Shown one piece after another: positions 1-16,355 of a stretch of DNA of 64,000 nucleotides; within the stretch, counting starts at the first letter, position 1, and every line of letters begins with the position of its first letter. Under the pieces are notes generated by a model, which saw nothing but the letters and a program-made list of their open reading frames with translations, had not been told where the DNA came from and searched no databases. This stretch comes from Campylobacteraceae bacterium. Its GTDB lineage: Bacteria > Campylobacterota > Campylobacteria > Campylobacterales > Sulfurovaceae. A program made the position numbers and the translations under genes. Where the stretch lies: the NCBI GenBank assembly GCA_027065045.1, contig JAMOOX010000087.1, forward strand, positions 30,912 through 94,911, in the 5' to 3' direction.

Positions 1-710
1 ATTAATAGATTTGTTTCTATATCTCTACCTGTTACTAATGAGTAGCTTAAATCTGCATTTAAAAAGTCTTTCATATCAATATGTGCTACATCATCAATAG
101 ATATATTCTCTAATGCTTTTGGCTTAAACTCTTGTGGTATTAATTTTCTATTTAATCCTACACTAAGGTCTCTAGCTACTCCATTAATACTTAGACAATC
201 ACCACGGTTAGCAGTAAGTTCAATCTCTATAATAGTATCAGCAATAGTTAAATATTGAGATAGTTCTTTACCTACAATAAGCTCTCCAATAGAGTCATCT
301 AATATCATAATCCCATCATTGAGTTCAGGTAATCCCAACTCACTAGATGAACAAACCATACCAAAGCTATCTACATCTCTTAAAACAGCCTCTTTAATCT
401 CAAAATCATCTCCAAGTTTTGCCCCAATAGTTGCTACGGCTACAAATTTAGCATCAACTACATTTTTTGCACCACATACAATTTGAACTGGCTCATCTGC
501 TCCAATATTAATACTACAAACATTTAATTTATCAGCATTAGGATGTTTGCTACAAGATAAAATCTCTCCAACTACAACTCCCTTTGGAATTGTTATATCT
601 TTTATACTATCTACCTCTAAACCAATAGAGTTTAAACATCTATAAATATCATCATTACTAATTCTATCAAGGTCAAGATACTCACTTAACCAACTTTTTG
701 TTACTATCAT
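1..710 (-). CDS. pheT: phenylalanine--tRNA ligase beta subunit, N-terminal part (gene runs off the window start)
   Basis: My translation of the minus strand from the ATG at 710 gives [35 protein letters not shown]...[17 protein letters not shown], a tRNA-binding domain. Its start overlaps the pheS stop as ATGA. It is absent from the ORF track because it is open at the window edge. Confidence 0.85.
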
Positions 711-1699
711 CTAAACTGCTCCATTAGTCTAATATCTCCCTCAAAAAGAGTCCTCAAATCTGGTACTCTATGTAAAAGCATAGCAAATCTCTCTATCCCT
801 AAACCAAAAGCATATCCACTTACATCTTTGTATCCAACAGCATCAAATACATTAGGGTCAACCACACCACAACCTAATACCTCTAACCAACCAGTATGAG
901 AACATATTCTACACCCTTTGGCTTCACAAAATATACAAGATATATCCACTTCAGCAGATGGTTCGGTAAAAGGGAAAAAACTAGGTCTAAATCTAACCTC
1001 TACATCTCCAAACATATATTGTAAAAAGTCAATTAAAATTGATTTAAGATTAGCAAAACTTACTACACCCTTTTTATCAACCACAAGCCCCTCTATTTGA
1101 TGAAACATTGGAGTATGGGTAACATCATAATCTCTTCTAAATACACTACCTGGGGCAATCATTCTAATTGGAGGAGTTGAGTTTTTCATAGTCCTAATTT
1201 GAACTGGTGATGTATGAGTTCTTAAAAGTTTCCCATCTCCACAAAAAAATGTATCTTGCATATCTCTAGCAGGGTGATATTTTGGTAGATTTAGAGCCTC
1301 AAAGTTATGAAAATCATCTTCTACCACTGGCCCACTCTCCACAGCAAAATTCATAGATACAAAATAGTCTATAATCTTATCCATAGTCTCCATCACAGGA
1401 TGAAGAGATGCTTTATTTGAGATATTTGAATACAAAGATACATCAATCTTTTCAGATTTCAAAATATTTTCTATCTCAATCTTTTTAACCTCTTTATATC
1501 TATCATCAAAAACAGATTGAAGCTTCTCTTTTTGCTCATTTAGATTTTGAGCAAAAGCCTTTTTCTCTTGTGGTGGAATATCTTTGAGTTTAATAAACTC
1601 TTTAGATAGTATCCCCCTCTTACCAAAAATCTCTATCCGTAAGCCCTCTAAAGCTTCAAGAGTATCAGCTTTTAATATATTATCTTTTAAATTTTCCAA
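707..1699 (-). CDS. pheS: phenylalanine--tRNA ligase alpha subunit
   Basis: 330 aa with class II aaRS motifs ([25 protein letters not shown]), directly upstream of pheT. Confidence 0.95.
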
Positions 1700-1822
1700 A
1701 ATAACCTCTTAATTACTATTTATTAGAGAGGATTTTACCTAAAAATTGCTTTATTCCAAAACTATAAATCATTTTCAAAGAAAAAAACACTATAATTACA
1801 AAAAAAGATTAAAAGGGATTAT

Positions 1823-2704
1823 TTGTTAATTAGTGTACCTGCAACTAGTGCTAACTTAGGGCCTGGTTTTGATTCATTAGGATTAGCTATTGATTTGAGA
1901 AATGAGATTATTATTACTCCATCAAAGTTTTTAAGTTTATCAACAATAGGAGAGGGTTCTAATAATCCAAAGATTAAGAAGAATACACTATTTCTAAGCA
2001 TTTTTAATGAAAATTATAAAAGATTAACAAATAGAAGTGATAATTTTAGGTTTGAATTTATTAATAATATTCCAATTTCAAGAGGTTTAGGTAGTTCGTC
2101 TGCTGTAATTGTGGCATCTATTACAGCAGCTTATGCTATGTCTAAAACTAAGTATAATAAGAGAGAGATTTTAAATTTAGCTCTTAAATATGAGCATCAT
2201 CCTGATAATATTACTCCTGCTGTTATGGGTGGGTTTAATGTGGCTTGTGTTGATAATGATAAGGTTTATAGCAAAAAAAGACGGTTACCTGATTATCTAA
2301 AAGCAGTTGTAGTTGTGCCAAACAAGACAATTTCAACTGCTCGTTCTCGTACAATTCTACCAAATCAATATAAAGCAGAGGAGACTGTCTATTCGCTCTC
2401 TCGTAGTGCATTTATGACATCTGTGTTTATGAGTGAGTCGTGGGATTTGCTTCGTGTGGCATCACAAGATAAGTTACATCAAACTAGAAGAATGAAAGCT
2501 ATGCCAGAGCTTTTTGATGTACAAAAGACTGCACTTGATAATGGTGCTTTGATGAGTACACTCTCTGGGAGTGGTTCTACATTTTTTAGTTTATGTTATG
2601 ATAAAGATGTTAATAAGGTGGCAAAGAAGCTAAAAGATAAATTTCCAAGATTTAGAGTTATGACAAAGTCTTTGGATAATTATGGTGTTACAACAAAGAG
2701 TTAA
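1823..2704 (+). CDS. thrB: homoserine kinase
   Basis: GHMP kinase signature: [16 protein letters not shown] and [14 protein letters not shown] start with an AAGGGA RBS upstream. Confidence 0.9.
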
Positions 2705-2726
2705 ACTCTTTTAAGGTATAATTACA

Positions 2727-2960
2727 TTGCAAAAATCCAAACCTATGAGAATGTGTATATCCTGTCGTATAAGAAATGAACAAAATAGTATGTTGAGATT
2801 ACAATATATAGAAGATAAGGTTATCTCATATAGAGGTTATGGAAGAAGTTTTTATATCTGTGTTAGTTGTACCTGCAATCCAAAAAAAATCAAAGGTTTA
2901 ACGAAGCGTTTTAAACAAGATGAAGAGCTTTTTGTTAAGTTTTTAAAGGAGCGAAAATAA
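2727..2960 (+). CDS. YlxR/DUF448 family RNA-binding protein
   Basis: Small basic protein with R(M)CISCR...LLR motif, in the conserved position immediately upstream of infB. The start could be the TTG at 2727 or the ATG at 2745. Confidence 0.75.
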   Translation: MQKSKPMRMCISCRIRNEQNSMLRLQYIEDKVISYRGYGRSFYICVSCTCNPKKIKGLTKRFKQDEELFVKFLKERK

Positions 2961-5492
2961 ATGGGTAAAGTAAAAATCCTAGAGATAGCTGCAGAGGCTG
3001 GAAAGTCAAATGCAGTATTATTAGACAAAGCTAAAGAGTTAGGCTTTGATGTAAAAGTAGCAAATAGTACAGTGAGCGAAGAACAAGCAGAAATACTTGT
3101 AAATTATGTAATTGATGGAACACTTCCTGATGGTTTTAAAAAACCTGTAAAGAAATCTAAAATTACTGTAAGTAAAAAAATTACAGCAGTAAAAAAAGAG
3201 ACTCCTAAAGTTGTAGGAGATGTAGAGAAATCTACTGAAACAAAAGGAGAAGCTTCAGATGATAGTAAAGCTGAAGAGGTACCAAAAGAGGCAGAGAAGC
3301 CGAAGATAAAGCTAAGAACTAAAAAATCTTTATCTCGTGGTGGAATTACAGTTGTAAAAAGAGCTAGACCTCTAAAGAAAAAAGCACCAATTCAATCAAT
3401 GGAAAGCTCTTCTACTCCTAAAAAGAAAAAGCCAAAGAAGAGTGGAGCAACTGCTAAAGATAGTGGTAAAAGACTAGAGATTATGAGTAGTGGCAACTTT
3501 GGTGGTGGTACAGAACTATTTGCTGAAGAGGAAGTAGTGTTACTTGACTTTTCTGATAAAAATATCTATGAAGATATGAAAAGACAAGAACAAAAGAGAA
3601 AAGAGGGTAACAAGCAAAGAGGTATGATTAATAATGGTTCTAACAAGCATTTTAATAACAGACCTAAAAGTATCAAGCGTTCAAGTAGAAAAAGAAAGAA
3701 TTACAATAAAATAGAAGAGGATATTGTAGTTAGTTCTATTGAGATACCTGAAGATGTAAGAGTATATGAGTTTGCTGAAAAAGTAGGTAAAAATGTAGGA
3801 GAGGTTGTAAAAGTTCTTTTCACACTTGGGACTATGGTTACCAAAAATGACTTTTTGGATAAAGACTCTATTGAGATATTAGCAGAAGAGTTTGAAGTAG
3901 AAGTAACTATTATTAATCCTCTTGATGCTCTTGATTACTCTAATGCTTATGATGATGAAGAGATTGATGAGACTCTATTAGAAGAGAGACCTCCTGTAAT
4001 TACAATTATGGGGCATGTTGACCATGGTAAGACTTCACTTCTTGATAAGATTAGAGAGACAAAAGTAGTAGATAAAGAAGCAGGTGGAATTACACAACAT
4101 GTTGGTGCTTATCAAGTAGAAAAAAGTGGTAAAAAAATCACATTTATTGATACTCCAGGACATGCTGCCTTTACAGAGATGAGAGCAAGAGGAACACAAG
4201 CCACTGATATAGTTTTAATTATTATCGCAGCAGATGATGGGATTAAACCTCAAACAAAAGAGGCAATTTCTCATGCAAAAGATGCAAATGTGCCAATTAT
4301 TGTAGTAATTACTAAGATAGATAAAGAGTCTGCTAATGTAGATATGGTAAAATCTCAACTATCAGAACATAATCTTCTTACAGTTGATTGGGGTGGAGAG
4401 ATAGAGTCTGTAAATGTATCATCTCACTCGGGAGAGGGAATTGATGAACTACTTGATGTAATTTTAATTCAAGCAGAAGTTATGGAACTTCAAGCATCTC
4501 CTAGTAGAAAAGCTAAAGCTATTGTAGTAGAGAGTTCATTAGAAAAAGGCTTTGGTGCTGTTGCTAATGTAATTATGAAAGATGGTACTCTAAGCATTGG
4601 AGATAGTATTGTAGTTGGTACTACTTATGGTAAAGTAAGAACTCTAGTTAATGACCATGGTAAAAGCGTAAAATCAATAGGACCTAGTACTCCTGCTTCT
4701 GTAATGGGATTAAATGAAGTACCAACTGCTGGTGAAATTTTGATGTCTATGGATAGTGAAAAAGAGACAAAAGAGTTGGCTCAAAAAAGATATGACCATA
4801 AAAGAGCAAAAGAGCTTTCAAGAAGTACAAAAGCAACTCTTGATGATTTATCATCTCTTATTGCAGAGGGACAACTTAAATCTCTTCCTGTTATTATCAA
4901 AACAGATGTTCAAGGTTCACTAGAAGCTATCAAAGGCTCATTAGAGAAACTTAAAAATGAAGAGGTTAAAGTTAATATTATTCACGAAGGTGTTGGTGGA
5001 GTTACAGAGAGTGATGTAGCATTGGCAAGTGCTAGTGAGCATACAGTAATTTTAGGATTTAATGTTCGCCCAACAGGAAGTGTAAAAAAGAGAGCAAAAG
5101 AGCTTGGAATTGAGATTAAATCATACTCAATTATCTATGAACTTATTGATGATGTAAAAGCATTCTTGGGTGGTATGATGTCCCCTGTATTAAGCGAAGA
5201 GGTTACAGGACAAGCTGAAGTAAGAGAGACTTTTATTGTAGATAAAGTTGGAACTATTGCTGGTTGTAAAGTAACTGATGGTAGTATTATCCGTGGTGGT
5301 GGTGCTAGACTTATTCGTGATGGTGTGGTTGTATATGAGAGTACAATTAGTTCTCTTAAGAGATTTAATGATGATGCAAGAGAAGTTAAAAATGGATATG
5401 AGTGTGGTATAATGTTGGCTAACTATAATGATATTAAAGTTGGAGATTTTATTGAGACATTCAAAGAGGTAGAAGAAAAAGCATCACTATGA
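2961..5492 (+). CDS. infB: translation initiation factor IF-2
   Basis: 843 aa. GTPase motifs GHVDHGKTSLLD, DTPGH and TKID, with a Lys-rich N-terminal region. Confidence 0.97.
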   Translation: MGKVKILEIAAEAGKSNAVLLDKAKELGFDVKVANSTVSEEQAEILVNYVIDGTLPDGFKKPVKKSKITVSKKITAVKKETPKVVGDVEKSTETKGEASDDSKAEEVPKEAEKPKIKLRTKKSLSRGGITVVKRARPLKKKAPIQSMESSSTPKKKKPKKSGATAKDSGKRLEIMSSGNFGGGTELFAEEEVVLLDFSDKNIYEDMKRQEQKRKEGNKQRGMINNGSNKHFNNRPKSIKRSSRKRKNYNKIEEDIVVSSIEIPEDVRVYEFAEKVGKNVGEVVKVLFTLGTMVTKNDFLDKDSIEILAEEFEVEVTIINPLDALDYSNAYDDEEIDETLLEERPPVITIMGHVDHGKTSLLDKIRETKVVDKEAGGITQHVGAYQVEKSGKKITFIDTPGHAAFTEMRARGTQATDIVLIIIAADDGIKPQTKEAISHAKDANVPIIVVITKIDKESANVDMVKSQLSEHNLLTVDWGGEIESVNVSSHSGEGIDELLDVILIQAEVMELQASPSRKAKAIVVESSLEKGFGAVANVIMKDGTLSIGDSIVVGTTYGKVRTLVNDHGKSVKSIGPSTPASVMGLNEVPTAGEILMSMDSEKETKELAQKRYDHKRAKELSRSTKATLDDLSSLIAEGQLKSLPVIIKTDVQGSLEAIKGSLEKLKNEEVKVNIIHEGVGGVTESDVALASASEHTVILGFNVRPTGSVKKRAKELGIEIKSYSIIYELIDDVKAFLGGMMSPVLSEEVTGQAEVRETFIVDKVGTIAGCKVTDGSIIRGGGARLIRDGVVVYESTISSLKRFNDDAREVKNGYECGIMLANYNDIKVGDFIETFKEVEEKASL

Positions 5493-5842
5493 CAAACGAA
5501 GAGATTAAAAGACATAGAGTAGAGTCAATTTTAAAAGAGATTATTCCAGAGGCATTGAGTTCGCTTGATGATAGTAGGATTAACTCTCTACTTGTTACAG
5601 AAGTAGTATGTTCTAAAGGTAGAAGTAATGCAAAAGTTTATCTTGATAAGTCATTTCTTACTCCTCAAGAACAAGGTGAAGCACTAAAACAGCTTAGAAA
5701 AGTGGGTGGATTTATTCAAAACCACTGTAAAAGTAGTGAGGGGTGGTTTAAAGCACCTATCTTTACTTTTGAGTTTGATGAGCAGTTAGAGTATATTACA
5801 AAAATGGAAGATTTATTTAAACAAATTAGTGCAAAATCATAA
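5489..5842 (+). CDS. rbfA: ribosome-binding factor A
   Basis: 117 aa. ATGA overlap with infB, conserved infB-rbfA-rimP order, RbfA-like sequence. Confidence 0.85.
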   Translation: MTNEEIKRHRVESILKEIIPEALSSLDDSRINSLLVTEVVCSKGRSNAKVYLDKSFLTPQEQGEALKQLRKVGGFIQNHCKSSEGWFKAPIFTFEFDEQLEYITKMEDLFKQISAKS

Positions 5843-5854
5843 AAGGATAAGATT

Positions 5855-6289
5855 ATGAATTTAGATATTGAAATAGAAAAAATAGTAAATATAAATGGTG
5901 CTAATTTATATGACACAGAGATAGTTACAGAACATGAAAACAGTATATTTAGAGTATATGTAACTAAAGAGGGTGGGATTAGCCTTGACTTATGTGCCTC
6001 TATATCCAGAGAACTTTCACCATTTTTAGATGTTTATCCTCCTATGAGTGCTAAATATACTCTTGAAGTAAGCTCACCAGGTATTGAGCGAAAACTTACA
6101 AAATTATCACATTTTAAATCATCTATTGGAGAGAAGATAAAAACCAAAATATTTGGTGATGGTAAAGTAAAAGGTGTTTTAAAATCAGTAGATAAAGATG
6201 GATTTGAAATAAAGTATAAAGATGGCACAATCAGTAAGTTAAGGTATGATAGTGTAGGTACAACAAAGACTTATTATGAGTGGATTTAA
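5855..6289 (+). CDS. rimP: ribosome maturation factor RimP
   Basis: 144 aa with the LEVSSPGIERKL motif typical of RimP. Confidence 0.85.
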   Translation: MNLDIEIEKIVNINGANLYDTEIVTEHENSIFRVYVTKEGGISLDLCASISRELSPFLDVYPPMSAKYTLEVSSPGIERKLTKLSHFKSSIGEKIKTKIFGDGKVKGVLKSVDKDGFEIKYKDGTISKLRYDSVGTTKTYYEWI

Positions 6290-7292
6290 TGATAAAATAT
6301 TGATGAATCTTGCTATCTATAAAGCATGGAAATATCAAGGTTTTACATATCCTAACCCTGCAGTGGGAGCTTTGGTTGTAGATGGTAAAGGTGAGATTGT
6401 AGCAATAGAGGCTCACCAAAAAGCAGGGACTTCTCACGCAGAAGTTTTGGCACTGCTTAGTGCTTATGAAGAGATAACGAATCAAAAACTTCCCATAGAT
6501 AAACTAAACCCAATTTTAGCACATAGATTTTTGACTACTTACTCTAACGATATATTCAAAGATTGTACAATTTATGTAACACTTGAACCATGTTCTCATA
6601 TTGGCAAAACTCCATCATGTGCATCACTACTTATTGATATTGGAATTAAAAGAGTGGTTGTATCTACAACAGACCCAATATCCTCTCATAGTGGTGGAAT
6701 TGATATAATGAAATATCAAGGGATTCAAGTTACAGTTGGGGTAGAAGAAGAGAAAGCAAAAGAATTAATTGAGCCATTTTTAATATGGCAAAGTAGAGCT
6801 TTCGTTCTATTTAAAATAGCTCAAACTTTTAATGGAAAGATAGGTGGTGGGTATCTAAGTTGTAAAAGCTCACTTACTCATACTCACAAACTACGAGAGG
6901 TTAGCAATAAAATATTAATTGGTGGAAATACAGTAAGAGTAGATAGACCAAGACTTGATTGTAGATTTTTAAAAGAGGCCATATCTCCTGATGTTTATAT
7001 ATATTCAAGTGCTGATAATTTTGATAGAGATACACCACTATTTAATATTCCTCATAGAACCGTAGAAATAGGAGATGATTTAAGCTTTTTAGATAATCCA
7101 TCATTTGTAATTATAGAGGGAGGAGAGGGAATGCTTAATGCCATCAAAGATAAAATAGATTGGCTTTTAATTTATCAAACATCTACTGTATCTACAAATG
7201 AAACAGATTATAAATTAAATCTCAAGACACAATCCTTACACCAACGAAAAATAGGAAAAGATGTAATGCTATGGAGCAAAGCCTTAAAATAG
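6276..7292 (+). CDS. ribD: bifunctional riboflavin biosynthesis deaminase/reductase
   Basis: CMP/dCMP deaminase zinc motifs HAEVLAL and TLEPCSHIGKTPSC, followed by a C-terminal reductase-like half. Confidence 0.85.
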   Translation: MSGFNDKILMNLAIYKAWKYQGFTYPNPAVGALVVDGKGEIVAIEAHQKAGTSHAEVLALLSAYEEITNQKLPIDKLNPILAHRFLTTYSNDIFKDCTIYVTLEPCSHIGKTPSCASLLIDIGIKRVVVSTTDPISSHSGGIDIMKYQGIQVTVGVEEEKAKELIEPFLIWQSRAFVLFKIAQTFNGKIGGGYLSCKSSLTHTHKLREVSNKILIGGNTVRVDRPRLDCRFLKEAISPDVYIYSSADNFDRDTPLFNIPHRTVEIGDDLSFLDNPSFVIIEGGEGMLNAIKDKIDWLLIYQTSTVSTNETDYKLNLKTQSLHQRKIGKDVMLWSKALK

Positions 7293-7304
7293 GAGCTTAA
7301 ATTT

Positions 7305-8618
7305 ATGACTATAGAACTTAAAAATATTGGAATGATTAAAGAGGCTATCGTTAAGATAGATGGATTAACTGTTATTGCTGGGGAGAATGATACAGGGAAG
7401 AGTACCGTTGGAAAAGTAATATTTTCTCTAATCAAAGCGAGTAGTAGATATAAAGAAGATTTAGAAGAAAATAAAGAAAAACAGATATTTGCAAAAATTG
7501 AACAAATCTATTTTAAATTAAGAAGAGAAATAGATTTTTCAAATAGATTAGACTTAAGAGAACAATTTTTTCCACCTATATTTAAAATGGATGTAGATAG
7601 ACAAGGTAGTATAGCTATTGAGAAAAGATTAGATTTTATATATACTTCAAATAATATATCTGAAAATTTTAATATTTTTAATAAAATAGAAAATGATTTA
7701 AATCAGTTATTAAAAATAATTAATACGGAAGATAAAATAGAGGATATGCAAAAAAGAGCATTTCAAAAAGTATTAATTTCTGAATTTAAAGGAAAAATTA
7801 CAAATCTTAACTCTACTAATAAATCAAAAATCAAAATATTTGATGGTCAAAACCCAATATTAAATGTAACTATTAGAGATAATAAAATTACAAAATTTGA
7901 AGTTTATGATAGATTATATTTTAATGATGCTACTTTTATTGAGAGTCCCATCTCTTTGCAACTCTCTGAACTTATAGATAATTCTAAAACTTATTTTGAA
8001 AATATAGAGAAACCTCTTAATAGGCAACCGAATATATCTCTACATATTAAAGATTTAAATGAAAAATTAAAAGAGTCATCTTATAATGAGGATTTATTGG
8101 ATTTAGATATAATATTTAGTGATTTAGATATAAATACTTTAAATAATAATTTATCTAATACTATGAATGGAAATATTAAATATCATAAAAAAACTAAAGA
8201 TTTTATCTATATATCAAATGGTAATAGTTTTTATAGCATTAATACTGCTACTGGAATTAAATCGTTTGGTATTATTCAAATGCTTCTAAAAAGTGGTTAT
8301 ATAAATAAAAATTCTCTTTTGATTTTAGATGAACCTGAAGTACATCTACATCCAAAATGGCAATTAAAATATGCTAAGTTTATAGTTAAGTTAGTTGAAA
8401 ATAATATTAATGTTTTGGTTACTTCTCATAGTCCATATATGATAGAGGCTTTAAAAAGATATTCTGAACTAGAAAATATAGAACAAAAAACAAACTTTTA
8501 TTTAGCAAAAGATGGATATATAGAGCATCAAGATAGTTTAGAGAATATTTTTGAAAAATTAGCTCTTCCTATGAGGGAGTTAAAAAAACTAAAAATGGCA
8601 AAATACTTAAATGATTAA
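7305..8618 (+). CDS. ABC-type (AAA_15/AAA_21-like, OLD/PtuA/AriA-class) ATPase
   Basis: Walker A GENDTGKST lies near the N-terminus. A roughly 300-aa Asn/Lys/Ile-rich helical insert follows, then a C-terminal LLILDEPEVHLHPKWQ...VTSHSPYM block (Walker B/D-loop/H-loop). An AGGAG RBS lies 12 nt after the ribD stop. Confidence 0.8.
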   Translation: MTIELKNIGMIKEAIVKIDGLTVIAGENDTGKSTVGKVIFSLIKASSRYKEDLEENKEKQIFAKIEQIYFKLRREIDFSNRLDLREQFFPPIFKMDVDRQGSIAIEKRLDFIYTSNNISENFNIFNKIENDLNQLLKIINTEDKIEDMQKRAFQKVLISEFKGKITNLNSTNKSKIKIFDGQNPILNVTIRDNKITKFEVYDRLYFNDATFIESPISLQLSELIDNSKTYFENIEKPLNRQPNISLHIKDLNEKLKESSYNEDLLDLDIIFSDLDINTLNNNLSNTMNGNIKYHKKTKDFIYISNGNSFYSINTATGIKSFGIIQMLLKSGYINKNSLLILDEPEVHLHPKWQLKYAKFIVKLVENNINVLVTSHSPYMIEALKRYSELENIEQKTNFYLAKDGYIEHQDSLENIFEKLALPMRELKKLKMAKYLND

Positions 8619-9141
8619 AAAAGCTCTTTCTCAATTAAGCTATGATAAGAAAAACAACATTATAGTTTGCAACTATATCAATACTTTTATTGATTTAGAT
8701 GATACAAAAGGCATTTTGAAAAAATCTCAATCCCCTAATTCTCCTGATATGTTGTATATTGATAAAAATAAAAAAGAAATATGGTTTGTAGAATTTAAAT
8801 CTTCTAATCATAAATCTTTAAATTCATGGAAAGAAAAATCTAAATTAAGAAAAAAGATTTTTTCAGGTCTTTTTTTAATTTATGAAATTTTTTGTAAAGA
8901 AAGTTGTCTTTATAAAGAGTATGATAAATTTTATTTTATTGCCTACAATAAAGAAAAGATAGAAAGTAGTGAAGATGAGCTTTTAGATATGTTTGAAGAT
9001 TTTTCTAGTCGTTCTATTGAGTTTGGATTAGAGGATTTAAAACCACAATTTGTAAAAGATATTTTTACAGAGGATTGTGATGAGTTAAAAAAACTTTTTC
9101 AAAAAAGATTTAATATTGAATTTATAAAGGAAACAAAATGA
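8611..9141 (+). CDS. hypothetical protein with candidate PD-(D/E)xK nuclease motif
   Basis: 176 aa. The motif SPD46[15 protein letters not shown]61-F-K63 looks like a beta-hairpin PD...ExK. The start overlaps the ATPase stop by 8 nt (ATGATTAA) and the stop overlaps the glyQ ATG (ATGA). Confidence 0.55.
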
Positions 9142-10031
9142 ATAAAAACACATTAACATTTAGTCAAATACTACTAAAACTACAACTATACTGGGCAGAC
9201 CAAGGGTGTAATATAGTACAACCCTACGATATACCAGCAGGTGCAGGGACATTTCACCCTGCTACACTTCTAAGAAGTTTAGATAGCAAACCATGGAGTA
9301 CAGCCTATGTAGCACCATCACGAAGACCAACTGATGGACGATATGGAGAAAACCCAAATAGATTAGGGGCATATTATCAATTTCAAGCACTTATCAAACC
9401 ATCTCCTGATAATATTCAAGAGCTTTATCTCAAGTCATTAGAGTATTTAGGACTTGATTTATCACAGCATGATATTAGATTTGTAGAGGATAATTGGGAA
9501 TCCCCAACTCTTGGTGCCTGGGGACTTGGTTGGGAAGTTTGGCTTGATGGTATGGAAGTTACTCAATTTACATATTTTCAACAGGTTGGAGGAATTGCTT
9601 GTAACCCAGTAGCAGTTGAGATTACTTATGGAACAGAGCGACTTGCTATGTATCTTCAAGGAGTTGAATCCGTATTTGATATTGTATGGAATAGACAAGG
9701 TGATAATATCACAACTTATGCCGATGTTCATAAAGAGAGTGAGTATGAGTTTAGTAAATATCACTTTGAAGTAGCCACAGTAGAGAAGCTATTTAAAGAT
9801 TTTGAAGATGCTTCTAATGAGTGTAGATTATGTCTTGAAAATGAGTTGCCACTACCTGCTTATGATGAGTGTATGAAAGCATCTCATTCCTTTAATGTCC
9901 TTGATGCTAGAAAAGCTATATCACAAGCTCAAAGACAAAATTATATACTTAAAGTTAGAGAACTCTCTATTGGTTGTGCTAAGCTTTATAAAGAACAAGA
10001 GGCTGAAAGAGAAAAAACCCAGATTTTATGA
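9138..10031 (+). CDS. glyQ: glycine--tRNA ligase alpha subunit
   Basis: 297 aa. [18 protein letters not shown]...[11 protein letters not shown] is highly characteristic of GlyQ. Confidence 0.97.
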
Positions 10032-10144
10032 AGTTTCTTCAAAACATAAAAATAGATTTTAAATCAAAGAGAATTCATAAAAATGAATATGATAAAATTA
10101 TTGACCCTTATAAACATATTGCAGAAAGAATTGCTAAAAAGTAA
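10028..10144 (+). CDS. possible 38-aa Lys-rich small protein
   Basis: My translation is [38 protein letters not shown]. The ATG overlaps the glyQ TGA (ATGA coupling). No recognisable family. Confidence 0.2.
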
Positions 10145-10410
10145 GAGGAGAGAATAAGTTACCTCACAGCAATTTATTTTCTCACTATAGTCATTATAAT
10201 AATTAGAGTAGCACATAGAAAAGAAATTTATTAAGCTTAAAAGCGAACAAGGTAATACTTACAATTATTCAAGCTTTTAATTTGCATAAAGTAAAATTAA
10301 AAGAATATAATAAAACAAGAAAAAATTAATTATTATAAATATAAATCATAATTTTAGTTAAAATTAAACAATATTAGTTTATACTTTAACTATAAAGTAA
10401 AGGATTAATA

Positions 10411-10644
10411 ATGACTGTAAGTGCAAAAGATTTAAGATTTAATATATCTATGCTTTTTGATGTATTGAGTAAAGGTGAAGAGATACTTATTACTTATAGA
10501 GGTAAAGCAAAGGCTAAACTTATCTCTTATAATAATTTAAAAGAGGAAAAAAGTGATGCCATTTTTGGATTATGAAAAGATAGAGATGAGGATGTAAATA
10601 GTATAGTAAAAAATATGAGAAAAGGTCGTAATTTTGATATATGA
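10411..10644 (+). pseudogene. Phd/YefM-type antitoxin (VapB-like) interrupted by an in-frame TGA
   Basis: My translation is MTVSAKDLRFNISMLFDVLSKGEEILITYRGKAKAKLISYNNLKEEKSDAIFGL*KDRDEDVNSIVKNMRKGRNFDI. The stop at 10573-10575 sits where related antitoxins have FG(L/M)WKD, consistent with TGG->TGA. Confidence 0.6.
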
Positions 10645-10817
10645 TAAACTACTTGATACAGATGTAATTATTTGGTATCTAAGAGGTAATCAAAATGCTT
10701 ATGACCTTATTCATAATATTGGTGAGTTTGCTATATTATGGTATGACACTTTATACAGCTAATGATAAACATTATAAAGTGATTAAAGAGTTAGATATTT
10801 TTGTATTTAGACCATAA
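10641..10817 (+). pseudogene. PIN-domain VapC toxin remnant (frameshifted, internally deleted)
   Basis: ATG at 10641 reads MINYLIQM*. The +2 frame reads DKLLDTDVIIWYLRGNQNAYDLIHNIGEFAIL (PIN N-terminus). A third frame reads YTANDKHYKVIKELDIFVFRP* (PIN C-terminus). The middle of the domain is missing. Confidence 0.55.
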
Positions 10818-10830
10818 AGAAAGGAACAGT

Positions 10831-11547
10831 ATGAAACTCCAAGAGATATACAACAAATTAGACGAAATCAGTCCATTTGACCTACAAGAAAGATGGGATA
10901 ATAGTGGATTAATTATTGGAAATATGGATAGTAATATAGAAAAAATTATATTATCTATCGATATTGATGAAGATTTACTTCTCAAAAGTGATAAAGATGT
11001 GCTTTTTATAGTCCATCATCCTTTGATATTTGATGGGCTTAAATCTTTGGATTTTGCTAAATATCCTGCAAAGTTAATTAAAATTATGATAGAAAAAAAT
11101 CAATCTTTGATTGCTATGCATACAAATTTTGATAAAACTCATCTTAATCGATATGTTTTTGAAGAGGTTTTGGATTTAGAGATAGCTAGTTTTGAAGATT
11201 TTTTATCTGTTTCTAATAAAGTTTTTACTAGAAGAGAGCTTATATCTTTGGTTAAAAGTAGGTTTGATATTGATAAGGTTAGAGTTGTTAATCCCAAAGA
11301 GAAGATACGAGGAGTTGCCTTAACTACGGGAGCAGGGGCCTCTTTGATGGATAGAGTGAGTGTGGATTGTTTGCTTACTGGGGATATAAAATATCATGAT
11401 GCAATCAAGGCAAAATCGCAAGATTTGATGATGATTGATATTGGACATTATGAGAGTGAGCAGTTTTTTGGGGAGGTGCTAAAAATGGAGTTGGAAAATT
11501 TACCTATTTTAGCTATAATTTCAAATTCGCAAAACCCATTTCATTAG
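10831..11547 (+). CDS. Nif3-like dinuclear metal centre protein (YbgI family)
   Basis: MKLQEIYNKLDEISPF..., with HHPLIF, HTNFD and GHYESE motifs. I prefer the ATG at 10831 over the track start at 10801. Confidence 0.85.
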   Translation: MKLQEIYNKLDEISPFDLQERWDNSGLIIGNMDSNIEKIILSIDIDEDLLLKSDKDVLFIVHHPLIFDGLKSLDFAKYPAKLIKIMIEKNQSLIAMHTNFDKTHLNRYVFEEVLDLEIASFEDFLSVSNKVFTRRELISLVKSRFDIDKVRVVNPKEKIRGVALTTGAGASLMDRVSVDCLLTGDIKYHDAIKAKSQDLMMIDIGHYESEQFFGEVLKMELENLPILAIISNSQNPFH

Positions 11548-11565
11548 AGTGCTAAAGGATAAGAA

Positions 11566-12285
11566 TTGAATAATGATTTAACAGAGTTAATAAAGTTATC
11601 AGATATAGATAAATCTATTGATAGCTTTTCACCAAAAATAGAGTCTGCAAACAAAAAGCTAGAAAAAGCTAAAGCTAAATTAGATAGTATTGTAGAAAAT
11701 AGAGATGCAACTAATCAATTAATAGAAGATAACAAAAGCAAAGTATCTGAATTTGAAAATCAGTTAGAGATGCTAAATCAACAATTAAAAGATATTACAA
11801 AAAAGAATAAAATTGTAACTACTGAAAAAGAGTTAAAGGCACTTACTTTAGAAGAGGAAATTGCAAAAGAGAAGATGACTTTTGCAAATGAAGAGATAGA
11901 AAAACTTCAAGATATTAATGAAAAAAAATCTATTGAATTAGATGAGTTTCAAGAAGAGATTGATAGAGAGAGTGCATTAGTTGATGCTATTATTCAAGAA
12001 GTAGCAGAGACAACTTCTGATATTGATAGTAAAAAGAGTGCTTTGTATGGCAAAAGAGAAGAGGTAACAGTAGGAATTAAACCAAATGTTCTTCAATTCT
12101 ATGAGAGAATTAGAATGTGGGCTAGAAATAGTGCTATTGTACCTATGAGAAAACAGGCTTGTTATGGTTGTTTTATGAAATTAAATGACAAGACTTATGC
12201 AGATATAATCAAAGCACAAGAGATTGTAACTTGTCCTCATTGTGATAGAATTATATATATGGAACCAGTAGAGGAAGAAGAGTAA
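11566..12285 (+). CDS. coiled-coil C4 zinc-ribbon protein (COG1579/HP0958-like)
   Basis: Long coiled coil followed by CYGCF...CPHCDRIIY. The pairing with the Nif3 gene is conserved. Confidence 0.75.
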   Translation: MNNDLTELIKLSDIDKSIDSFSPKIESANKKLEKAKAKLDSIVENRDATNQLIEDNKSKVSEFENQLEMLNQQLKDITKKNKIVTTEKELKALTLEEEIAKEKMTFANEEIEKLQDINEKKSIELDEFQEEIDRESALVDAIIQEVAETTSDIDSKKSALYGKREEVTVGIKPNVLQFYERIRMWARNSAIVPMRKQACYGCFMKLNDKTYADIIKAQEIVTCPHCDRIIYMEPVEEEE

Positions 12286-12288
12286 TCT

Positions 12289-13452
12289 TTGTTTAATATA
12301 ATATATACTATTGTTATCTTGATAGTATATATTATCTCTATCGCTTTTATTATAATATTCTCATTTAAAGATAAATATAAACAATCCCTACCATCACGAT
12401 TTTTTTTACGAAACAATCCTAAACTAAAACCAAATGGTATATGGTTTCACTCCTGTTCTTTAGGAGAGGCAAAAGCAATCAAACCACTTATTGATAAATT
12501 TAATATAGATGATATTCGTCTAACTACTACTACAAATACAGGATTTGGTGAAATATCTAAATATAGCTCACAGAGTCGTTATCTTCCTTTTGAGATACTA
12601 TTACCATTTTGGATAAAACCTCAAAAAACTCTTGTAATTATGGAGGCTGAATATTGGTATATGCTATTTTTATTATCTAAACTTTATGGTGCTAAGATAG
12701 TCTTAATTAATGCTAGAATGAGTGATAACTCTTATAAAAATTATCTAAGATTTAGATGGTTTTATCGTAAAATATTTGCATTTGTAGATAAGATTTATGC
12801 TCAAAGTGATATAGATAGAGATAGATTAGAGACTCTTGGTGCTACAAATATAGAGGTAATAGGTAATATCAAACTCTATAAATTGCCACAAACTACAAGA
12901 GAACTAGATAAACCAAACTCACTTATAGTTACTGGGGCAAGTACTCACAGTGGAGAGGATATTTTAATATTAGAGGCATTTAAAAAATTTAAAGAAAAAA
13001 ATACAAATGCTAAACTTATTTTAGTACCTCGTCATAATTTTGATAAAATTGTAGATTTAGCTAATAATTTTGCTAATATAAATCAGTTATCATTTTCACA
13101 ATATTCACAAGATAAAAGCCTAAATAGTGATATAATAGTTGTAGATATGTTGGGAGAACTTATTAATATATACTCTATTAGTGATATTGTTATTATTGGT
13201 GGTTCATTTATAGATGGGATAGGTGGGCATAATGTAGCAGAGGCATCTCAATTTGGTTGTAAGATAATATCAGGTAAATACTATTTTAACCAAAAAGATA
13301 TATATCGTTCTGTTAGTGGGATTAAAATTATAGATAAAAGTATGCTATATCAGACTCTTTTAGATTATCAAAATTTATCATCTACCAAAGTATTAGTTAA
13401 GTGTGATATAGAACCTATCTTATCTACTATTGATGATTATATCCATAGATAG
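12289..13452 (+). CDS. waaA: 3-deoxy-D-manno-octulosonic acid (Kdo) transferase
   Basis: N-terminal TM helix, WFHSCSLGEAKAIKPLI motif, GT30-like C-terminal half (GGSF..GGHN). Confidence 0.85.
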   Translation: MFNIIYTIVILIVYIISIAFIIIFSFKDKYKQSLPSRFFLRNNPKLKPNGIWFHSCSLGEAKAIKPLIDKFNIDDIRLTTTTNTGFGEISKYSSQSRYLPFEILLPFWIKPQKTLVIMEAEYWYMLFLLSKLYGAKIVLINARMSDNSYKNYLRFRWFYRKIFAFVDKIYAQSDIDRDRLETLGATNIEVIGNIKLYKLPQTTRELDKPNSLIVTGASTHSGEDILILEAFKKFKEKNTNAKLILVPRHNFDKIVDLANNFANINQLSFSQYSQDKSLNSDIIVVDMLGELINIYSISDIVIIGGSFIDGIGGHNVAEASQFGCKIISGKYYFNQKDIYRSVSGIKIIDKSMLYQTLLDYQNLSSTKVLVKCDIEPILSTIDDYIHR

Positions 13453-14335
13453 AAAAATTAGATTTACCACCTTTTTTAGCCATATACATCGCTTTATCTG
13501 CTAGTTTTAATAACAAATCTATATCTAAAGTATCTTGGATATATCTACTAATTCCTATACTAGCAGATACTTTTAGTATATTTTCATTGTATATAAGAGG
13601 TATAGAGGTGGCATCTATAATCTTTTGTGCTAATATGTTGAGATTATCTATATCTACTATATCTTTGATAATTATAACAAACTCATCTCCTCCTAATCTA
13701 GCAAATATATCATCTTTTCTTATCATTTTTGATATATTAGATACGACCCATTTTAATATTTCATCTCCTGCTTTATGTCCATAATTATCATTAATTGGTT
13801 TAAAATTATCTAAATCTATAAAAAATAGAGAAAAAGTAGATTTATTATCTCTAAGTTGAGCTAAACTTTGATTAAAAGAGAGGCGATTTTTTATTTTTGT
13901 TAGTTCGTCATAGTGTGCTAGATTATATAAAATCTTTTTATCTCTATCTTTCTCTATTTTCTCTTTTAAACTAGCAGTAACTTCTAATAGTTTTTCATTA
14001 AACTTATCAATATCAATTGGTTTAGATATAAATCCATTTGCTCCATAATTTAATGCCTCCATCAAATTATTTTTATCTCCAAATGCAGAAGTGATAATAA
14101 TCATTTGTTCTTTGTCAATTGATTTTATCTGTTTAATCATATCAATACCATTTAACTTTGGCATATTTAAATCTGTAACAATAATATCAGGTTTTTTAGA
14201 TTTATATATCTCTATACCCTCTTCACCATTAAAGGCTTGATAAAACTCTTTGACCTCATCAGAGAGATAAAATTTCATATACTCTTGTGTATCTTTATCA
14301 TCCTCTACATATAAAAGTGTAAAATCTTGTAACAT
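13427..14335 (-). CDS. response regulator / diguanylate cyclase (REC-GGDEF)
   Basis: The receiver has DIIVTDLNMPKLNG. The GGDEF domain has an intact RLGGDEF and an RKDD (RxxD) I-site 5 aa upstream. Confidence 0.9.
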   Translation of the reverse strand: MLQDFTLLYVEDDKDTQEYMKFYLSDEVKEFYQAFNGEEGIEIYKSKKPDIIVTDLNMPKLNGIDMIKQIKSIDKEQMIIITSAFGDKNNLMEALNYGANGFISKPIDIDKFNEKLLEVTASLKEKIEKDRDKKILYNLAHYDELTKIKNRLSFNQSLAQLRDNKSTFSLFFIDLDNFKPINDNYGHKAGDEILKWVVSNISKMIRKDDIFARLGGDEFVIIIKDIVDIDNLNILAQKIIDATSIPLIYNENILKVSASIGISRYIQDTLDIDLLLKLADKAMYMAKKGGKSNFSIYGYNHQ

Positions 14336-14336
14336 A

Positions 14337-15956
14337 CTATATACTCCTATTTAAAACTATTTCAAATGTTGTAATGCCATCTATACTAGATGCTTTTATG
14401 CTTCCTCTCATATGCTCTTCTATAATTATTTTTGTCATATAAAGTCCTACTCCTGTACCATTTTTTTCATTTTTTGTAGAAAAATATGGGTCAAATATTC
14501 GCTCAATTATATCATTTGGTATCCCACCTGCATTATCTTTGATATATAATTTAATATGCTTCTCTTCTATTTTATAATAGATATTAATCAACGCATTTTC
14601 TATTTTATTTTCTATCAAGGCATCTTTTGCATTATTGATAATATTAATAATAGATTGCCCTAGCTTATTGGGATACCCATCAACAAAACAGCCATCACAC
14701 TCACTTACTTGTAGTTTTATACTATTTTTTGTAAGTATAGGAGATACTATTGATATAGAATTATTTATGCTATCATGAAGATTAAATATTTTTTTATCTA
14801 CCTCTGGTTTGAAAAAGTTTCTAAATTCATCAATAGTATCAGACATATATTTAATCTGCTTTTGTGATGATTGTTCAAAATAATCCATAATATTATCATT
14901 TATTTTACCTCTTTTATACTTCAATATAATTGTTTGGCTAATTAATGATAGATTATTTAGAGGTTGTCTCCATTGATGGGCTATCATACTTATCATCTCT
15001 CCCATTTGAGCCAATCTTGATTGTTGTAACATTAACAGTTGTTGTTCTCTATTTTTGGCTACCTCTTGCTTGATTGTATCTTTTAAATATTTTTCTCTTG
15101 TTTTATTCTCTTCAAATAAAACACCTGATATTAAAGCCAAAGATATATGGACAAGTATAAAAAAATTGATATTAATAATATTATCTACCATAGAGTGAAT
15201 AGCAAAAGCACCCACTCCAATATATACACTATAAGTTGATACCATAGCTATTACCACAGGTAGGGCAACACCATATAATAGCCCCCTCCTAGAGATTATT
15301 AATATTACAGCAGGTATAGTAAAAGTAAGTAGTAGTGATAAATTCTCTAAAATAATCTTCAACTCTAAAATATATATAAAAATAGTAAAGAGGAGTATAT
15401 ATAATAGATACTCATATATATTTATCTTTTTATAATGTATTAGTATCAATAATATAAATGGAGTAAATAACAATTGCCCCATTATATTACCAAACCACCA
15501 TGAAAAAAGAGATGATAAATAAGAAATATTTTCTAACTCATTGCTAATATATAAAACATAATTACCCAAAATAGAACTAAATGGTTGTAGTATAAAAATA
15601 ATAATCATAACTAACCCCAAAACATCTCTTAGAGTTAATAGATTTTTATGTAAATTATATCTATTAAATATAACCACTCCAATAACTGCCTCTAAAGCAT
15701 TGATAATAGAGATAAAAAAAGATGGAATAAAATCCAACGAACAACTAGATGCTAATATAAATTGTCCTATAAATATACCTAACCATACTCTTTTACCCCA
15801 AAATATAGCTGAAGCTAATGCTAATCCCTCTGATGCAAATATTACAATTGTAACAATAGTATCTTCTTGTAATATAGAAAAACTAACTTTTCCTAGCAAA
15901 AAATATCCGATGGATATAAATATAGTTAAAATTAAGTACTCTCTATTATATTTCAA
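14337..15956 (-). CDS. membrane sensor histidine kinase (MASE1-like N-terminal multi-TM domain)
   Basis: About 8 TM helices, H-box IAHQWRQPLN, and ATPase N/G boxes (NNAKDA, GTGVGLYM). Adjacent to the REC-GGDEF gene, which starts 2 nt downstream on the same strand. Confidence 0.85.
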   Translation of the reverse strand: MKYNREYLILTIFISIGYFLLGKVSFSILQEDTIVTIVIFASEGLALASAIFWGKRVWLGIFIGQFILASSCSLDFIPSFFISIINALEAVIGVVIFNRYNLHKNLLTLRDVLGLVMIIIFILQPFSSILGNYVLYISNELENISYLSSLFSWWFGNIMGQLLFTPFILLILIHYKKINIYEYLLYILLFTIFIYILELKIILENLSLLLTFTIPAVILIISRRGLLYGVALPVVIAMVSTYSVYIGVGAFAIHSMVDNIININFFILVHISLALISGVLFEENKTREKYLKDTIKQEVAKNREQQLLMLQQSRLAQMGEMISMIAHQWRQPLNNLSLISQTIILKYKRGKINDNIMDYFEQSSQKQIKYMSDTIDEFRNFFKPEVDKKIFNLHDSINNSISIVSPILTKNSIKLQVSECDGCFVDGYPNKLGQSIINIINNAKDALIENKIENALINIYYKIEEKHIKLYIKDNAGGIPNDIIERIFDPYFSTKNEKNGTGVGLYMTKIIIEEHMRGSIKASSIDGITTFEIVLNRSI

Positions 15957-15992
15957 TTTATCTCTCCTATTTTAAGTTGAGTTTTTGCTAAA

Positions 15993-16355
15993 TTATATTA
16001 ATATTATATATCCAACAAATAACCATATTACACCAACCATCATAATGGTAATAAATACTACACTACTACCCAAATCTTTTGCCTCTTTGGCTAATGGGTG
16101 TATCTCGGTGGTTACTAAATCCACCACCCTCTCAATAGCACTATTAACAAGTTCTGCTATTAGTACCAAAAAGAGAGATGATGATAAAATCATCTGATAT
16201 GGAGTCTCAATAGGTATTATAAATATTGCTACTTGAAGTATTATAAATATAATCAACTCAATTTGAAATGATTTCTCATATTTAAATGCTATTTTCAACC
16301 CATTAATGGCATAAGATGTATTATTAAATAGATGATACTTTGGTTTATTTGTCAA
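15993..16355 (-). CDS. dgkA: diacylglycerol kinase
   Basis: 120 aa with 3 TM helices and the DgkA motifs NTSYAINGL...FQIEL...LVLIAELVNSAIE. Confidence 0.85.
   Translation of the reverse strand: MTNKPKYHLFNNTSYAINGLKIAFKYEKSFQIELIIFIILQVAIFIIPIETPYQMILSSSLFLVLIAELVNSAIERVVDLVTTEIHPLAKEAKDLGSSVVFITIMMVGVIWLFVGYIILI

Follow-up and report, generated by a model that had tools for sequence, protein, structure and literature searches.

An overlapping gene pair encoding an OLD-type ABC ATPase and a predicted PD-(D/E)xK nuclease upstream of glyQ: a probable anti-phage module and divergent relative of HEC-02 and WonAB

Why would an ATPase of a kind familiar from phage defence, together with a small nuclease-like protein, be lodged in a housekeeping operon immediately upstream of the gene for glycyl-tRNA synthetase? 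The question is raised by a 64,000-nucleotide stretch of a Campylobacteraceae genome (contig JAMOOX010000087.1, positions 30,912 to 94,911 of the forward strand; hereafter the window), in which an ATP-binding cassette (ABC) ATPase of 437 amino acids and a protein of 176 amino acids are encoded between ribD and glyQ. The initial annotation, made from the letters of the DNA, proposed a two-gene defence module with a new ATPase-nuclease combination. The analysis presented here suggests that the pair is probably an accessory, two-gene anti-phage module of the abortive-infection type, belonging to a class in which an OLD-type ABC ATPase is coupled to a small PD-(D/E)xK nuclease. The combination itself is not new, since this class has already been described and validated as HEC-02, WonAB and PD-T4-4; the architecture is known and the pair is a divergent, unannotated relative. 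The new details are that the pair is repeatedly embedded in operons, that it occurs in tandem, and that the ATPase is a mosaic with a C-terminal tail varying in step with the nuclease; the mechanism is not new.

Both open reading frames are real genes, as judged from their homologues: the ATPase family has more than 3000 members, and for the small protein a word-indexed search gave 70 homologue clusters (90% identity) and a full profile search 351 representatives (50% identity). A cluster look-up returned neither names nor accessions for the two window proteins. The extents of the two reading frames, their 8-nt overlap and the 4-nt overlap of the small-gene stop with the glyQ start are as first annotated. 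Overlaps had been claimed on both sides of the pair; that on the glyQ side stands, while on the other side the ribD stop (7290-7292) and the ATPase ATG (7305) are separated by a 12-nt gap with zero overlap. The 8-nt overlap of the two genes suggests translational coupling, in support of the coupled two-gene module originally described. The locus is laid out as follows.

6276-7292: ribD, upstream neighbour of the ATPase gene (from the list of reading frames)
7291..7304, strand +: short spacer between ribD and the ATPase gene, holding the Shine-Dalgarno sequence AGGAG at 7291-7295 (read from the sequence)
7305..8618, strand +: ATPase gene, 437 aa, OLD/PtuA-like ABC ATPase
8611..8618, strand +: overlap of the ATPase stop and the small-gene start, 8 nt, ATGATTAA
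8611..9141, strand +: small gene, 176 aa, PD-(D/E)xK-like stand-alone protein
9138..9141, strand +: overlap of the small-gene stop and the glyQ start, 4 nt, ATGA
9138..10031, strand +: glyQ, glycyl-tRNA synthetase alpha subunit (Pfam tRNA-synt_2e), context outside the module

The two families are tightly associated. At 25 of 25 distinct loci with the small gene, the ATPase gene immediately precedes it in the same orientation, and the stop and start of the two overlap or abut. These loci range from Sulfurovum lithotrophicum and Campylobacterota metagenome-assembled genomes (one of them Nautiliaceae) to SUP05-type Bathymodiolus symbionts and a gut phage-like contig, and the co-occurrence thus extends across phyla. 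The copy on the gut phage-like contig was found through the ATPase only, and a tblastn search with the small protein against 50,697 phage records returned nothing. At least 11 loci were confirmed in a metagenome scan.

The presence of the pair is patchy. The survey of glyQ loci is a sample of Campylobacterota contigs and not a census; it yielded 32 assessable species-level genomes, in which, among the matches listed, the pair is present at four glyQ loci and absent from 28. The closest relative among the matches listed (L005, glyQ 93% identical) lacks the pair, and its purE and glyQ genes are 12 nt apart. Empty purE-glyQ gaps measure 12-25 nt and have no scars; decayed remnants of the pair were not found in them, and the longer gaps carry a glutaredoxin-like gene. 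Patchy presence, an empty site in the closest relative and the lack of remnants at empty sites together indicate that the pair is accessory, as first proposed. The neighbour that is conserved is glyQ, which is 70-93% identical among Campylobacterota and lies directly 3′ of the pair (overlapping or within a few nucleotides) at 18 loci; these come from divergent Campylobacterota, and the gene on their upstream side is of three different kinds. ribD, initially named as part of the conserved context, is upstream in the window only; elsewhere its place is taken by purE, with or without the glutaredoxin-like gene, or by another gene.

What kind of ATPase is encoded? Its motifs and variable parts are given below.

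Residues 26-34 (nt 7380-7406), strand +: Walker A, G26-ENDTGKS-T34, of the ATPase
Residues 338-345 (nt 8316-8339), strand +: Walker B, L338-LILDEPE-345, of the ATPase
Residues 373-378 (nt 8421-8438), strand +: H-loop, T373-SHSPY-378, of the ATPase
7440..8180 (about residues 46-292), strand +: variable insert of the ATPase, candidate sensor part
8437..8615 (residues 378-437), strand +: C-terminal extension of the ATPase, on which the small protein probably docks

In an alignment of 40 homologues G26/K32/S33, D342-E345 and H375 are invariant; the Walker A and Walker B/H-loop motifs picked out in the initial annotation, like D46 and E61-F-K63 of the small protein discussed below, thus fall on invariant or nearly invariant columns. 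The protein matches Pfam AAA_15 (E = 3e-16, 60.4 bits against a cut-off of 32.1) and AAA_21 (8.5e-13, 49.5 bits, cut-off 27). Among PADLOC models the best of 91 is HEC-02A (PDLC04214; 3.4e-28, 96.9 bits), followed by PD-T4-4_A (4e-25) and AriA (6e-22), with weaker scores for the PtuA, GajA and Old models. The HEC-02A match spans mainly residues 276-396, i.e., the C-terminal third, and the phage family phrog_14430 matches the protein over its full length (3.7e-72). A profile-profile comparison with hhalign placed the ATPase family and HEC-02A together at 97% probability over 112 columns. When validated and related proteins were scored against the profile of the window ATPase family, Vibrio cholerae WonA reached 67.7 bits (E = 1.5e-22 in a small database) and the tested HEC-02A 56 bits, with other OLD-ABC ATPases at 22-57 bits and HEC-01A at 8.9. 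The confident AlphaFold2 (AF2) model (predicted local distance difference test, pLDDT, 87.4; predicted template modelling score, pTM, 0.83) shows the insert as a helical bundle (57-161) and a β-rich part (174-212). Foldseek returned 169 matches to this model at E ≤ 1e-3, of which PtuA is the best (5.7e-8); the first 19 consist entirely of chains of PtuA or of other retron-system (Eco8) ATPases, and Rad50/SMC heads come next. By sequence, PtuA is the only match among solved structures, and the likeness is restricted to the Walker B/H-loop region.

The small protein comes from a family whose members stand alone and are about 150-200 aa long. Its candidate catalytic residues are as follows.

Small protein: D46 (8746-8748), E61 (8791-8793), K63 (8797-8799) and K82 (8854-8856)

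Across 125 diverse relatives, which share about 20-30% identity with the window protein, three residues never vary (D46, E61 and K82) and four hardly do (S10, D30, F62 and K63). In the confident AF2 model (pLDDT 83, pTM 0.80) D46 lies just before strand 47-51, E61 and K63 lie within strand 56-63 and K82 is on helix 73-93; the predicted β-hairpin of the initial annotation is thus borne out by strands that carry or flank the motif residues. Searches of Pfam, NCBIfam, PHROG and PADLOC with the protein gave nothing above threshold, and the only Pfam hint is SduA_C, over 61 residues of the D...ExK region (E = 9.7e-4, 19.8 bits, threshold 27). The wider family is more informative. Of the 125 relatives, the HEC-02B models PDLC04226 and PDLC04217 recognise 19 and 13, respectively (best E = 3e-6), the matching members being the more distant ones, and other relatives match PDC-M29B, Cas4, CARF-PDDEXK, NERD, SduA_C, L_protein_N (the bunyaviral endonuclease) and RE_TdeIII. 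Although not significant, the top Foldseek ranks include many PD-(D/E)xK nucleases: bunyaviral (hantavirus) and arenaviral cap-snatching endonucleases, MUS81, XPF, DdmD, Hachiman (8zue), FokI and Bse634I. A search of solved-structure sequences with the profile of the small family returned plasmepsin alone, which was set aside as a chance match. Because the motif and these weak matches converge, the assignment of the small protein as a predicted PD-(D/E)xK nuclease is well supported, with a fold that leaves it unproven; AF2 and Foldseek show no clearly non-nuclease fold.

Comparison of the ATPases with one another reveals a mosaic. In those whose partner is 70-78% identical to the small protein of the window, the last 60 residues are 80-87% identical and the core 52-62%; the insert, of 98-171 residues as against 251 in the window, is 23-29% identical and unalignable. 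The ATPases of S. lithotrophicum (L085) and L015 display the opposite arrangement, with a long insert and a core like those of the window (core identity 75-79%) and a divergent C-terminal tail and partner. The N-terminus, insert and core of the window ATPase resemble the S. lithotrophicum type, and its last 60 residues and partner resemble the short-insert type (L091-L104, type-A partners). Among the ATPases compared, tail identity follows partner identity (Spearman rho 0.79) and core identity does not (rho -0.32), the points in both cases not being independent. From these alignments the window ATPase looks recombinant, with a breakpoint near the H-loop (about residue 377). The pattern of core, tail and partner identities points to recombination between sensor and effector halves, and that of tail and partner to co-evolution of the ATPase tail with the nuclease.

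Where does the pair stand among named systems? It is closest to HEC-02 (Hma-embedded candidate 02; Payne et al., bioRxiv 10.1101/2024.01.29.577857), in which an ABC ATPase and a NERD-like PD-(D/E)xK protein act against phage and both genes are required. The tested HEC-02 proteins have 342 and 169 aa. The two systems share gene order and stop/start overlap, with HEC-02 ATPases of 342-349 aa and stand-alone PD-(D/E)xK proteins of 169-173 aa, and HEC-02A is the best PADLOC model for the window ATPase. When the small family was compared by hhalign with a 41-sequence alignment of HEC-02B, C20, D46 and E61xK63 of the small protein fell on the corresponding invariant residues of HEC-02B, and K82 coincided with K78. 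Unlike HEC-02A, the window ATPase has a 251-residue insert; the HEC-02B models have no match to the window small protein itself, unlike 19 of its 125 relatives; and HEC-02 resides in Hma/McrBC-type defence islands (a Halomonas homologue was checked), whereas this pair occupies housekeeping operons. Mapping onto a named system is accordingly half clean: the ATPase maps to HEC-02A and the small protein matches no existing PADLOC model. Some HEC-02B homologues (WP_024108365.1; P0402; L109 5001-5522) are labelled ‘cysteinyl-tRNA synthetase’ in RefSeq/UniRef. A general link to aminoacyl-tRNA synthetases through this label was considered and discarded: the record checked lies in a DUF1156/DUF499/McrBC-like island with no cysS nearby, and the label therefore appears spurious.

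WonAB, from the V. cholerae WASA-1 prophage, consists of an OLD-type ABC ATPase and a 16-kDa PD-(D/E)xK variant, and both genes and both active sites are required: mutation of the ATPase motifs abolishes defence, as does K71A in the nuclease (PMC12137116). WonB is toxic only in the presence of active WonA, a simple toxin-antitoxin relation has been ruled out experimentally, and rRNA or tRNA has been proposed as the target because genomic DNA stays intact and translation stops (PMC12137116). The system is one of the ‘OLD-ABC ATPase + novel REase’ operons, a family present in 0.96% of genomes; PMC12137116 credits Krishnan et al. (2020) with noting the operon first. WonB is predicted to bind the C-terminal extensions of WonA (PMC12137116), and this docking site matches the co-variation of tail and partner in the window family. 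WonA, as noted, scores well against the window ATPase profile, and the prophage origin of WonAB has its counterpart in a partnerless ATPase homologue in a prophage-like setting and in the pair on the phage-like contig. The systems differ in their nuclease motifs, E-L-K-G...Q in WonB and E-F-K...K in the window small family (a downstream lysine in place of glutamine), and gene order in the ‘novel REase’ operons is often reversed relative to the window pair. Within the accessible part of the table in PMC12137116, the SUP05 genome NZ_CP024634.1 is represented by a different locus (MS2017_RS00600/605), and neither MS2017_1440, the homologue identified in the present analysis, nor Sulfurovum is among the entries there.

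PD-T4-4 of E. coli is likewise a two-gene system of ABC ATPase and PD-(D/E)xK nuclease (Vassallo et al., 2022; PMC9519451). Among PADLOC models of the window ATPase, PD-T4-4_A ranks second, with a match limited to residues 277-412, and PD-T4-4_B has no match to the small protein or to any of the 125 relatives. Septu and retron-Septu resemble the window pair in that an ATPase controls a nuclease and no solved structure comes nearer to the ATPase model than PtuA; PtuB, however, is an HNH nuclease, the small protein has no HNH match in Pfam or PADLOC, and the sequence likeness is confined to Walker B and the H-loop. In PARIS, AriA is an ABC ATPase scaffold that holds a separate nuclease, and AriA models match the window ATPase, but AriB is a TOPRIM/DUF4435 protein, for which there is no match here in Pfam or PADLOC, and the matching AriA model is in essence the generic AAA_15 profile. 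Shedu shares a PD-(D/E)xK protein, SduA, whose SduA_C domain (DUF4263) is the sub-threshold hit over the small-protein motif; unlike the window pair, it is a single gene encoding a larger protein without an ABC ATPase partner. The pair is thus a relative within the HEC-02/WonAB/PD-T4-4 class and not a demonstrated member of any named system.

How might such a module work? With all genes on the same strand and only tiny gaps between them, the pair would be expressed constitutively, on the transcript of the housekeeping genes around it and by coupled translation. The ATPase, to judge from its fold, would dimerise through the ABC head in an ATP-dependent manner. Its insert is hypervariable and may be the sensor of the trigger, while the small nuclease could dock on the C-terminal extension with which it co-varies. 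By analogy with the validated systems, a phage cue would lead to ATP binding or hydrolysis that licenses the nuclease, nucleic acid would be cut and phage production would stop. The target may be DNA or, on the WonAB model, an RNA of the translation apparatus.

Several observations weigh against this assignment. The window small protein has zero PADLOC matches at E ≤ 1, and ten close and glyQ-linked relatives have none either. Foldseek gave no significant match to its model, the best PDB match having E = 0.36 with TM scores of 0.24-0.32, and the best viral (BFVD) match, at E = 1e-3, is to uncharacterised proteins. The direct links to HEC-02B are weak: hhalign places it and the small family together at 24-50% probability, and HEC-02B scores 15 bits with the hidden Markov model (HMM) of the small family. 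WonB is not detectably similar by HMM (1-4 bits) and the ‘novel REases’ reach 0.5-13 bits. Two close ATPase homologues (L107 and L108) have no partner. The setting is a tight housekeeping operon and not a defence island, and in Campylobacterota the pair is almost always attached to glyQ. Finally, GC content at third codon positions (GC3) carries no clear trace of recent acquisition. The pair is more AT-rich than its flanks, as initially remarked, with a GC of 0.228, where the window averages 0.292 (sd 0.027 among segments of that size), and a minimum of about 0.20 in the ATPase insert; GC3 is 0.13-0.15 as against 0.17-0.19 in neighbouring genes. Since GC3 differs so little, the low GC mostly reflects proteins rich in Asn, Lys and Ile and not a clearly foreign codon usage, and a recent foreign origin, suggested by the low GC, was rejected as unproven.

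These points leave room for other explanations. The small protein might be a non-catalytic, nucleic-acid-binding or adaptor subunit of the ATPase complex that cleaves nothing, as would fit a protein that has no significant fold match to a solved nuclease, stays below threshold in Pfam and PADLOC, and has an AF2 core in which helices one and two are separated by just two strands where the textbook fold runs α-β-β-β-α-β. This is improbable, since an acidic-acidic-basic triad and a second lysine kept at about 20% overall identity form the pattern of an active site rather than a scaffold; these positions match up with their HEC-02B counterparts in the alignments, WonB does not function without the equivalent lysine, K71 (PMC12137116), and such weak matches as there are lead mainly to PD-(D/E)xK families. 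A second alternative takes the nuclease seriously and reads the pair as a selfish, addiction-type (toxin-antitoxin-like) cassette, in which the ATPase restrains a nuclease toxin, deletion is difficult between coupled essential genes and any anti-phage effect is secondary. The recurrence of the pair between such genes (purE/ribD-glyQ, mraY-murD and aspS-nadA), the lack of flanking mobility genes or repeats, the toxin-antitoxin remnants that adjoin the locus, the toxicity of overproduced WonB (PMC12137116) and the Pfam label of AAA_21, ‘putative AbiEii toxin, type IV TA’, would all suit this account. Yet the experiments on WonAB excluded simple toxin-antitoxin behaviour and made WonB toxicity dependent on active WonA (PMC12137116), clean empty purE-glyQ sites of 12-25 nt imply that the cassette can be lost or absent without harm, and a hypervariable insert with tandem diversification is a better fit to arms-race sensing; an addiction cassette is hence unlikely.

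Could the pair instead serve glyQ? A housekeeping role tied to glyQ or translation, for instance in quality control or in the processing of RNA or tRNA, would make the pair a co-regulated companion of glycyl-tRNA synthetase unconnected with immunity. It would explain why glyQ follows the pair in 18 loci of divergent genomes behind three kinds of upstream neighbour and why the pair is downstream of aspS in SUP05 symbionts, and it would suit the rRNA or tRNA suggested as the WonAB target (PMC12137116). Such a role is very improbable. Most relatives, including the closest among the matches listed, manage without the pair; the mraY-murD operon, which has no aminoacyl-tRNA synthetase close by, holds a 70% identical copy; one copy is on a phage-like contig and a partnerless ATPase homologue lies beside a prophage-type repressor; partner types are about 75% different between genomes whose glyQ is 90% identical; and canonical HEC-02 is found in a defence island. 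The reading as an anti-phage module of the HEC-02/WonAB/PD-T4-4 class remains the probable one.

On that reading, the distribution of copies raises a further question: do they share a habitat? Outside the purE/ribD-glyQ slot, L097 carries the pair between mraY and murD (4061-5528) with overlaps, the small-gene end abutting the murD start and the small protein being 70% identical to that of the window, which shows that the cassette can pass from one essential operon to another. The SUP05 symbionts have the pair between aspS and nadA, an interval (L086-L088, about 300-11000) that is a variable hotspot with Fic, DarT-Macro, PemK and several unknown genes in a combination that differs per genome. 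Three loci have tandem paralogous pairs. Two of these settings are upstream of glyQ (L101/L102, 1569-4531; L104, 317-3432), and in L100 (3-2776) two paralogous pairs in tandem are followed by the end of the locus before any downstream gene; in all of them each pair has a different partner type. There are at least four types of small partner, which differ by about 75% between genomes with 90% identical glyQ; the upstream partner in L100 and L101 (181 aa, with a ‘CC’ motif and D...E-E-K) is undetected by the family HMM.

These arrangements invite a rather speculative generalisation, for which we see a low but real chance: that this branch of the class lives not in defence islands but inserted between translationally coupled essential genes, where copies pile up in tandem and exchange sensor and effector parts. 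If so, an operon position would give constant expression and make imprecise deletion costly. A bolder extension, by analogy with WonB, is that the nuclease may target the translation apparatus and that the linkage to aminoacyl-tRNA synthetases may be functional (a tRNA target or synthetase-linked sensing) and not positional.

For the class as a whole, the analysis adds a sizeable family (about 350 nuclease-partner clusters at 50% identity) to three validated exemplars, extends it into chemolithotrophic Campylobacterota and vent/symbiont Gammaproteobacteria, and does so for proteins of which the window representative and most relatives are unrecognised by Pfam or PADLOC models. The co-variation of tail and nuclease lends the docking geometry predicted for WonAB a sequence-based support that is independent of structure prediction, and the mosaics among the ATPases illustrate a way in which sensor and effector parts may be recombined. 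Defence discovery based on islands would overlook cassettes embedded in operons as these are. How the class is understood to work is unchanged.

Scans of the surroundings for signals gave little. Flanking direct or inverted repeats around the pair were limited to chance AT-rich matches, and there is thus no sign of an insertion mechanism. Promoter and terminator scans yielded nothing above shuffled expectation; no terminator-like site was seen between ribD and glyQ in a scan that was uninformative overall, and Rfam gave zero matches in window positions 1-16000. A 26-nt direct repeat, 81% identical, occurs at 7321-7346 and 8600-8625 and contains ATGATTAAA; one copy encodes G-M-I-K-E-A within the N-terminal part of the ATPase, the other M-I-K-K-A where the small protein begins, and it is probably a chance match in AT-rich DNA.

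One of the partnerless ATPase homologues has surroundings of its own. In L107 (about 7400-8200) the gene adjoins a CI/LexA-like, prophage-type repressor in an AT-rich run of short unannotated reading frames, and this AT-rich block abuts GC-rich glycoside-hydrolase genes, as would be the case either at a prophage edge or in a chimeric assembly.

Downstream of glyQ, the spacer before a gene of the NIF3 family holds two fragments.

10411-10575: Phd/YefM antitoxin fragment, 54 aa (Pfam E = 1.9e-7)
10634-10762: reading frame of 42 aa whose start, LDTDVIIWYLRG, resembles a PIN/VapC N-terminus

A decayed vapBC had been proposed here; the antitoxin half is upheld by the Phd/YefM fragment, and the PIN-like fragment of 42 aa gave no match in Pfam. 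The spacer (window 10028-10800) is 770 bp long; it reaches about 1.7 kb in L006-L008 and shrinks to 10-40 bp in many of the other Campylobacterota, a variation in length that marks the glyQ-NIF3 interval as a second variable slot. In Sulfurospirillum, Campylobacter and related genomes (L017-L030, 0.5-2 kb 5′ of glyQ), the purE-glyQ slot is occupied by a conserved gene of 155-163 aa (‘MQTWLEIEEF...’), sometimes with further small genes.

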